A stretch of DNA of 64,000 nt. Source: Eledone cirrhosa (Eukaryota). A model generated the notes under the pieces. That model saw only the letters and a program-made list of their open reading frames with translations. It searched no databases and was not told the origin of the DNA. A program made the position numbers and the translations under genes. How positions within the stretch are numbered: position 1 is the first letter of the stretch; each line of letters begins with the position of its first letter. The stretch spans positions 312,232,001 to 312,296,000 of the forward strand of contig OZ024743.1 in NCBI GenBank assembly GCA_964016885.1. Direction: 5' to 3'. This document shows, piece after piece, positions 41,765-42,140 of this stretch.

Positions 41765-42140
41765 AAAGAAAAAGAGATGAAATCGAAAATGCAACTGGAT
41801 TCTTATTTTTTAAAAAAATATATATATTTATTTGGTTCCTTTACCGGTTTCGCAGTTCTTCTGCTTTTCAAAAGGTGAGTTGAGATGGAGGGTCTGTGGT
41901 TTTTCTCACATCTCACATCTCACACAGATGTGAGAAAAACCACAGACCCCCCATCTCAACTCACCTTTTGAAAAGCAGAAGAACTGCGAAACCGGTAAAG
42001 GAACCAAATAAATATATATATTTAAAAAAAAAATAAGAATCCAGTTGCATTTTCGATTTCATCTCTTTTTCTTTATACTTTCACTCGTGTAGGACACCTC
42101 GGTTATTTTTCAATTTGTAAAAAAAACCTCACTTTCTAAT
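41765..42140 (+). mobile_element. Fold-back pLTR insertion
   Basis: 41765-41913 mirrors 41926-42075. Flanked by (TA)n. Confidence 0.85.
41964..42001 (+). ncRNA. Minimal hammerhead with U3-A8 core (mirror 41838-41875; decayed copies ~13203 and ~57342)
   Basis: CCUU-UUGAAAA-GCAG-AAGAA-CUGC-GAAA-CCGG-UA^AAGG. Confidence 0.8.

Follow-up and report, generated by a model that had tools for sequence, protein, structure and literature searches.

The window examined here is a 64-kb stretch of the Eledone cirrhosa genome (positions 312232001-312296000; genome size 3.0 Gb, 37% GC) in which hammerhead motifs lie in repeats belonging to Penelope-like elements (PLEs). A minimal type I hammerhead with a U3-A8 core, assigned to a family termed A, is found at 41964-42001 on the plus strand, with a predicted cut between 41997 and 41998. 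It is built from a 4-bp stem I (CCUU/AAGG), the core UUGAAAA with U3 at 41968 and A8 at 41973, a 4-bp stem II (GCAG/CUGC), the GAAA box, a palindromic CCGG and the cut site UA^. This core fits the consensus Y3 U4 G5 A6 N7 R8 A9 / G12 A13 A14 with positions 3 and 8 Watson-Crick paired, and stems I and II, G10.1-C11.1, A15.1-U16.1 and H17 are all present. The initial annotation had described a perfect minimal hammerhead except for C3U plus G8A, and the letters read exactly so. An identical, inverted twin lies at 41838-41875 on the minus strand (core U3 at 41871). Around them, two 5'-truncated 3' repeat ends of family A are arranged as a short inverted pair (41762-42077, arms 41762-41913 and 41926-42077), which adjoins (TA)n and contains no PLE ORF. 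The 41964 copy is itself probably inert, since the insertion is short and truncated and RNA reading through it would likely base-pair with the inverted twin.

The exact 30-mer of this motif occurs in 11,539 copies across the genome (reversed control 0), and the first 100 of the 6,621 family A matches are all U3-A8. Within the window, the pattern TTGANAA-N11-16-G[AC]AACCGGTH is found six times, and 200 local shuffles gave 0.0 occurrences on average; a decayed copy of the A lineage at 57341-57378(+) reads UUGAAUA (U3.U8). The palindromic stem III makes a double hammerhead possible. When two copies of 41960-42005 were co-folded, the minimum-energy structure was a double hammerhead at -22.5 kcal/mol, compared with 2 x -7.5 (-15.0) kcal/mol, and in this predicted structure each core acts on the UH strand of its partner. 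These folding models suggest that PLE motifs may form dimers. As monomers, six motifs gave stability z-scores against shuffles of -0.49, 0.16, 0.02, -0.82, -0.48 and -3.0, with only family D more stable than shuffles. An Rfam scan of the window gave 119 matches at E<=5, none of them to a hammerhead family; these were low-complexity matches of miRNA type that stayed below threshold.

Related families and their carrier elements

The motif of family A' at 15465-15502(+), which has an inverted twin with its core at 13701(-), is hammerhead-like with a U3-A8 core and the change A13C, so that GCAA replaces the core GAAA and the invariant A13 of the hammerhead consensus is lost. Decay of one copy was ruled out as the source of GCAA at 15466, for C13 is found in 10,443 of 10,478 family A' matches genome-wide. 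Stem I of this family consists of A-U pairs only (UUUU/AAAA). All seven of the family A' loci fetched contain pieces of an RT-endonuclease ORF with 93-99% identity to one copy, and the ratio of nonsynonymous to synonymous ORF variants is 2/18 for shared variants versus 83/38 for single-copy variants (p=8e-7), which shows purifying selection. At 15469-15498, A13C also gives rise to another palindrome, UGCGCA, which overlaps stem II and what had been the GAAA box.

Family B is represented by U3-A8 hammerheads at 36409-36446(-) and 61533-61571(+). The first of these lies downstream of an endonuclease fragment (36871-37035, 40% identity to the family A protein P0001), at a distance of 428 nt. In both copies stem I is 2 bp long and followed by a mismatch; the family has 863 matches, with U3-A8 in 99 of the first 100. 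A tandem repeat of 168 nt that begins TCTATATATATAAAA and is accompanied by a GTCT microsatellite, which we take to be Helitron-like, is found at 8358-8704 and 36260-36421 and abuts the family B motif.

The initial annotation attributed these hammerheads to PLEs, an assignment supported by the RT and GIY-YIG ORFs found upstream of families A and A'. Family A motifs follow ORF P0001, which carries RVT_1, a CX4CxxC linker and GIY-YIG, a layout that fits the description of Neptune/Nematis-type PLEs in PMC8557442, the comparison being one of descriptions. The family A' ORF is 50-60% identical to P0001 and likewise has RVT_1 and GIY-YIG; families B and D are tied to endonuclease fragments only. Family C follows a second ORF, P0002, which carries the motifs RWR, DKT and CxCx5C and has its endonuclease at the C-terminus; its YxDD and GIY motifs were located by regular expression, and a Pfam search with P0002 returned no match. 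P0002 resembles Hydra-1_Obim as judged by eye, and family D is placed only by endonuclease similarity. The RWR (RWK-like), DKT, CxCx5C and C-terminal endonuclease features resemble those of the Hydra-clade PLEs described by Craig et al. (2021, PMC8557442), as do (TA)n targets, a hammerhead at the 3' end and a stem II whose base has unpaired letters (File S2 of that study). The Hydra hammerheads listed in File S2 are all C3-G8, whereas those of Eledone families C and D are U3-A8 or C3.A8. A first reading of families C and D as Naiads was rejected in view of the C-terminal endonuclease and the Hydra-like motifs.

The insertions are 5'-truncated, tandem and inverted, and occur at microsatellites, a trait of EN+ PLEs. 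Identity with non-LTR retrozymes was also ruled out, the cited families being dispersed or inverted and tied to ORFs. Elsewhere in the genome, an array at L273:8600-9720 (G000:C3, near 280,008,750) looks like a non-LTR retrozyme, with tandem units of ~311 nt, in each of which a minimal C3-G8 hammerhead with a CGCG palindrome is present; one further copy is inverted. RVT_1 fragments from other retroelements lie in the window at 60782-62993(-).

Abundance and origins of U3-A8 cores

The family D hammerhead at 53745-53882(-), with core U3 at 53876, is a decayed copy in which GAAU replaces GAAA; GAAA is present in 29 of 30 close copies. Its C3-G8 sister, family D', lies at 33959-34090(+) with an inverted twin whose core is at 28071(-). 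The two hammerheads can be aligned over the whole motif and both have C opposite A where stem II starts (10.1-11.1), similar to unpaired letters in published PLE motifs (PMC8557442 File S2). Family D has 1,108 matches, the first 100 of which comprise 99 U3-A8 and 1 U3.G8, and family D' has 10,501 (control 247), with 99 C3-G8 and 1 C3.A8 among the first 100. In a 14-row endonuclease tree, D and D' are sisters with support of 95/95, and family C falls apart from them among C3-G8 families. By alignment and tree, these sister families thus present a true C3-G8/U3-A8 double change. The D' PLE sits inside a large near-perfect inverted repeat (27886-34150), which holds ORF pieces with 40-50% identity to P0002 and C3-G8 hammerheads at both ends.

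Genome-wide counts bear out the proposal that U3-A8 is the state of whole families: short motifs of the CCGG class number 19,642 with U3-A8, 17 with C3-G8, 150 with C3.A8 and 101 with U3.G8 (controls 17, 2, 14 and 7, respectively). Mismatched cores in this class thus amount to about 0.5-0.8%, the level of decay, and likewise in most families. Over the patterns counted, U3-A8 motifs total roughly 33,000. To cover all stem types, a random sample of 105 ten-kilobase stretches at round coordinates (1.05 Mb, two stretches adjoining the window) was searched, and it yielded 71 motifs: 53 C3-G8, 9 U3-A8, 2 U3.G8, 1 C3.A8 and 6 others, with inverted twins counted twice and five of the C3-G8 motifs from one tandem locus (reversed control 1; shuffles 1 and 4). 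U3-A8 therefore makes up 9 of 62 intact paired cores in this sample, or ~15% (Wilson interval 8-25%), and 14 of 67 when its five A13C motifs are included. A stricter descriptor applied to 99 stretches gave 10 U3-A8 and 29 C3-G8 (10/39) among 48 matches, with 8 in the reversed control. These descriptors are incomplete, the relaxed one missing the window's own family C and D copies. U3-A8 is a real minority class carried by few very large families; calling it a major class of the genome, as the initial annotation did, was an overstatement, and at a GC content of 37% most families keep C3-G8.

The same double change had been proposed for 15466, 36409/61533, 42818 and 53742. The core UUGANAA does stand at all of these sites, but their further defects went unstated: GCAA at the first, a 2-bp stem I at the second pair, an internal loop in stem II at the third, and GAAU with the C.A apposition in stem II at the last. 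The independence of the five families and their stems was likewise overstated, as they reduce to three lineages. The motifs at 41964, 15466 and 36409/61533 have a GCA/UGC stem II and ACCGGUA in common and lie behind proteins related to P0001. Since families A, A' and B share stem II letters and the ACCGGU palindrome, they are counted as probably one lineage; those at 42818 and 53742 are two separate lineages within another clade of the endonuclease tree. The two U3-A8 changes in that tree, together with the P0001 lineage, would give at least three origins of U3-A8 if C3-G8, the state of all the Hydra motifs in File S2, is ancestral. Three additional U3-A8 motifs, whose stems differ and whose palindromes are AUAU, CAAUUG and UA, occur at L007:997(-), L193:3181(-) and L177:7016(-) and are possible further origins. 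A repeat with the layout AUGAAGA...GAAA-UA (A3.G8) and a weak stem II, seen at L012:7525(-), L050:8161(-) and L056:8424(+), is probably a chance resemblance.

Part of this picture has been in print since 2014, when Cervera and de la Pena (PMC4209133) reported that minimal hammerheads of PLEs can have a U3-A8 core, that such cores make up a large share in one genome, and that the descriptor was blind to them. In the Cercyon PLEs of Schistosoma mansoni, they described ~1,300 U3-A8 matches versus ~2,000 canonical ones, missed by a first C3-G8 descriptor. A CUGANGA-only search would indeed miss the U3-A8 families of Eledone, as was initially suggested, and the same search bias was published in that year for Schistosoma PLEs. 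Cercyon elements share with those of Eledone a type I minimal motif in repeats, a palindromic stem III, UUGAAAA/UUGAUAA cores and opposite-strand pairs. They differ in that ~40% of their motifs are U3-A8, against ~15% in Eledone, where at least three lineages in two PLE clades are involved. No mention of family-level C3.A8, U3.G8 or A13C cores was found in the text and supplement passages of PMC4209133 that were consulted. Among natural U3-A8 hammerheads, several show the same C3-G8 to U3-A8 covariation (Perreault et al. 2011, PMC3088659); they are rare in the set reported there, and here they number tens of thousands of retrotransposon copies.

A mismatched core as the state of a family

The family C hammerhead at 42818-42913(-), with core U3 at 42908, has a long stem II interrupted by an internal loop; its stem III is likewise long, and near-palindromic. 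An ORF fragment with a Hydra-like RT end and endonuclease (43576-44540(+), 92-93% identity to P0002) also belongs to this family. Since CGGCU/AGCCG occurs four times in the motif, strands might be exchanged between stems II and III, or the GAAA box might be masked by a hairpin; the hammerhead stems are nonetheless present in the predicted fold. Among 1,719 family C matches, 1,027 (60%) are C3.A8, 683 are U3-A8 and 9 have G8. The Watson-Crick pair between positions 3 and 8 is thus absent at the level of the family in 1,027 of 1,719 copies, and mismatched cores outnumber U3-A8 here, an outcome beyond the parity that the initial annotation had named as speaking against its claim. C3 is tied to many diagnostic sites and is therefore the state of a master element rather than decay. 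An older sister group of family C has 1,473 matches, the first 100 comprising 94 U3-A8, 5 C3.A8 and 1 U3.G8. A small U3.G8 subfamily has G8 in 25 of 27 matches and U3 in all eight copies read. No C3-G8 ancestor of family C was found among the G8 matches, where C3-G8 occurs in 8 of 43, about the level of decay.

Young U3-A8 copies are nested within the C3.A8 ladder of the family C tree with support of 100/99, in trees of 26/86 and 26/103 copies that used older copies as an outgroup on a long branch, and whose alignment omitted position 3 (and, for the 103-copy tree, position 8 as well). An AU test rejects a C3.A8 clade (p=1e-9, the hypothesis having been named after the first tree). Trees of short regions are weakly resolved, and the filter applied for one of them left out the G8 subfamily. 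A placement of C3.A8 as a terminal offshoot, obtained with a midpoint root and 35/85 copies, was ruled out once older copies joined the trees and by the AU test. Only the midpoint root and the distance to the nearest neighbour (0.084 vs 0.048, 0.028 and 0.028) place the U3.G8 group as the oldest. The nesting points to an order of core states from U3-A8 to C3.A8 and to U3-A8 again. At L214, the repeats of what appears to be a single inverted family C insertion (2832(-) and 6094(+)) differ at position 3 and belong to separate subfamilies. This suggests either that the template was switched or that two insertions took place, and recombination may therefore blur the family C ladder.

Purifying selection on the protein can be followed through the mismatched state. 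Shared ORF variants of C3.A8 copies have an N/S of 7/15 versus 103/40 for single-copy variants (p=4e-4, with ORF coverage at 11 of 13 loci), and since the shared variants are mostly synonymous, C3.A8 masters probably made working protein. The fold appears to be kept as well. Across four family C subfamilies, one of 33 positions is altered in stems I and III, GAAA and UH, compared with 12 of 39 in loop II (p=0.002), and the single altered position closes a mismatch; stem II was left out of this test because the collecting motif fixed it. This conservation of stems relative to loop II argues against the reading that U3-A8 motifs are functionless vestiges drifting under AT-biased mutation, as does the persistence of UUGANAA and GAAA-CCGG-UH between families with 40-50% identical endonucleases. 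The changes C to U and G to A do match an AT bias in a genome of 37% GC, and several U3-A8 families have weak stems or extra core changes, but we consider drift of this kind very improbable.

A defective core might also be rescued in trans, with the intact core on a partner RNA cutting the UH site of the defective copy in a mixed dimer. The predicted double hammerhead, in which each core acts on the partner's UH strand, would allow this, and the ACCGGU palindrome is common to A and A'. The stem I arms of these two families are unlike, however (CCUU/AAGG in A, UUUU/AAAA in A'), the long stem III of family C folds intramolecularly, and few U3-A8 partners of the same age are seen during the inferred C3.A8 ladder, all of which leaves such rescue only a slim chance.

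Cleavage, fold and the spread of PLEs

PLE minimal hammerheads are reported to cleave weakly, as dimers, and have been proposed to process tandem precursor RNA (PMC4209133, PMC6765202). For the Eledone families, the explanation to which we give slightly better than even chances is that the fold is likely under selection and the catalytic core weakly so, that the minimal hammerheads likely cut tandem RNA slowly, and that U3-A8 likely arose stepwise through tolerated mismatches. The palindromic stem III is predicted to pair two motif copies into a dimer, and the predicted dimers would likely cut the element's tandem RNA, slowly. Cleavage would then be a modest benefit, and masters whose core is mismatched or damaged could last for a long time. 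If masters tolerate a mismatched core, C3-G8 could change to U3-A8 in two steps more easily, which would explain the repeated origin of U3-A8. We infer that U3-A8 RNAs cleave and that C3.A8 and A13C RNAs cleave poorly. Two protein-coding families multiplied to >1,000 and >10,000 copies although poor cutting is predicted for their cores, which suggests that cutting is likely not strictly needed for these PLEs to spread. The core is not free, however, since mismatches in most families do not exceed the level of decay and the apparent return of family C from C3.A8 to U3-A8 fits selection for the pair.

The regained pair of family C would also suit an extension of the initial annotation's view, namely a fully functional, compensatory U3-A8 core with cleavage required, in which C3.A8, U3.G8 and A13C still cut sufficiently, be it in their own context or through help from protein. 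The clean C3-G8/U3-A8 covariation of D versus D' speaks for such a core, and all 3/8 states seen are pyrimidine-purine. C.A is moreover a near-isostere of the U.G wobble, which counts in the same direction. In vitro activity of U3-A8 variants has also been reported (PMC3088659, citing Przybilski and Hammann 2007). A13 is, however, part of a core that cleavage is said to require (PMC7151607), activity was low when single letters of the CUGA/G8 region were altered in a high-throughput study of a type III construct (PMC9901934), and the 10,443 A13C copies are also limited to an A-U stem I. We therefore hold a strictly required, functional core to be rather unlikely. In the same type III construct, only the swap G3-C8 rescued and U3-A8 failed (PMC9901934), and therefore even U3-A8 may be near inactive.

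A role apart from catalysis would have the palindrome pair two RNAs, or the element's RT recognise the shape, with cleavage incidental in these lineages. Stems and palindromes are kept while core letters change, functions beyond cleavage are left open by Cervera and de la Pena (PMC4209133), and hammerhead function is called unclear by Craig et al. (PMC8557442). Structure alone, however, needs neither the exact C3-G8 core found in 53 of the 71 sampled motifs across many unrelated stems nor the covariation of positions 3 and 8, so a wholly non-catalytic role seems to us decidedly unlikely. A slowly cutting core under weak selection, within a selected fold, remains the explanation we prefer.

In the literature searched, C3.A8 or A13C as the core of a whole family of autonomous PLEs was not reported, a weak negative, and such cores may already have been described by Lunse et al. 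2017 or Przybilski and Hammann 2007. For Naiads, spread in the absence of a canonical hammerhead is reported, although the core search there used CUGANGA (PMC8557442). Naiad and Chlamys PLEs are autonomous and of high copy number without a canonical ribozyme, as described in the same study; unlike them, the Eledone families retain the hammerhead fold with one core letter changed and therefore represent an intermediate state. On a tentative and stronger reading, which we consider doubtful, autonomous PLEs amplified for long with catalytically dead cores (A13C in >10,000 copies, C3.A8 in >1,000) while the fold was kept, and the pair of family C walked through U.G, U-A, C.A and U-A. If this were true, PLE hammerheads would be kept mainly for a structural role, and cleavage would be optional.

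The new part of these observations is the amplified families with defective cores, the initial claim about U3-A8 being largely known. Hammerhead descriptors should admit YUGANRA plus single core changes. The families form a natural allelic series on near-identical stems, with U3.G8, U3-A8, C3.A8 and U3-A8 in one lineage, C3-G8 versus U3-A8 in sisters, and A13 versus C13. Copy numbers and protein-level selection are known for this series, and cleavage rate could therefore be compared directly with transposition success, which bears on why PLEs carry hammerheads at all, a matter called unclear in PMC8557442.
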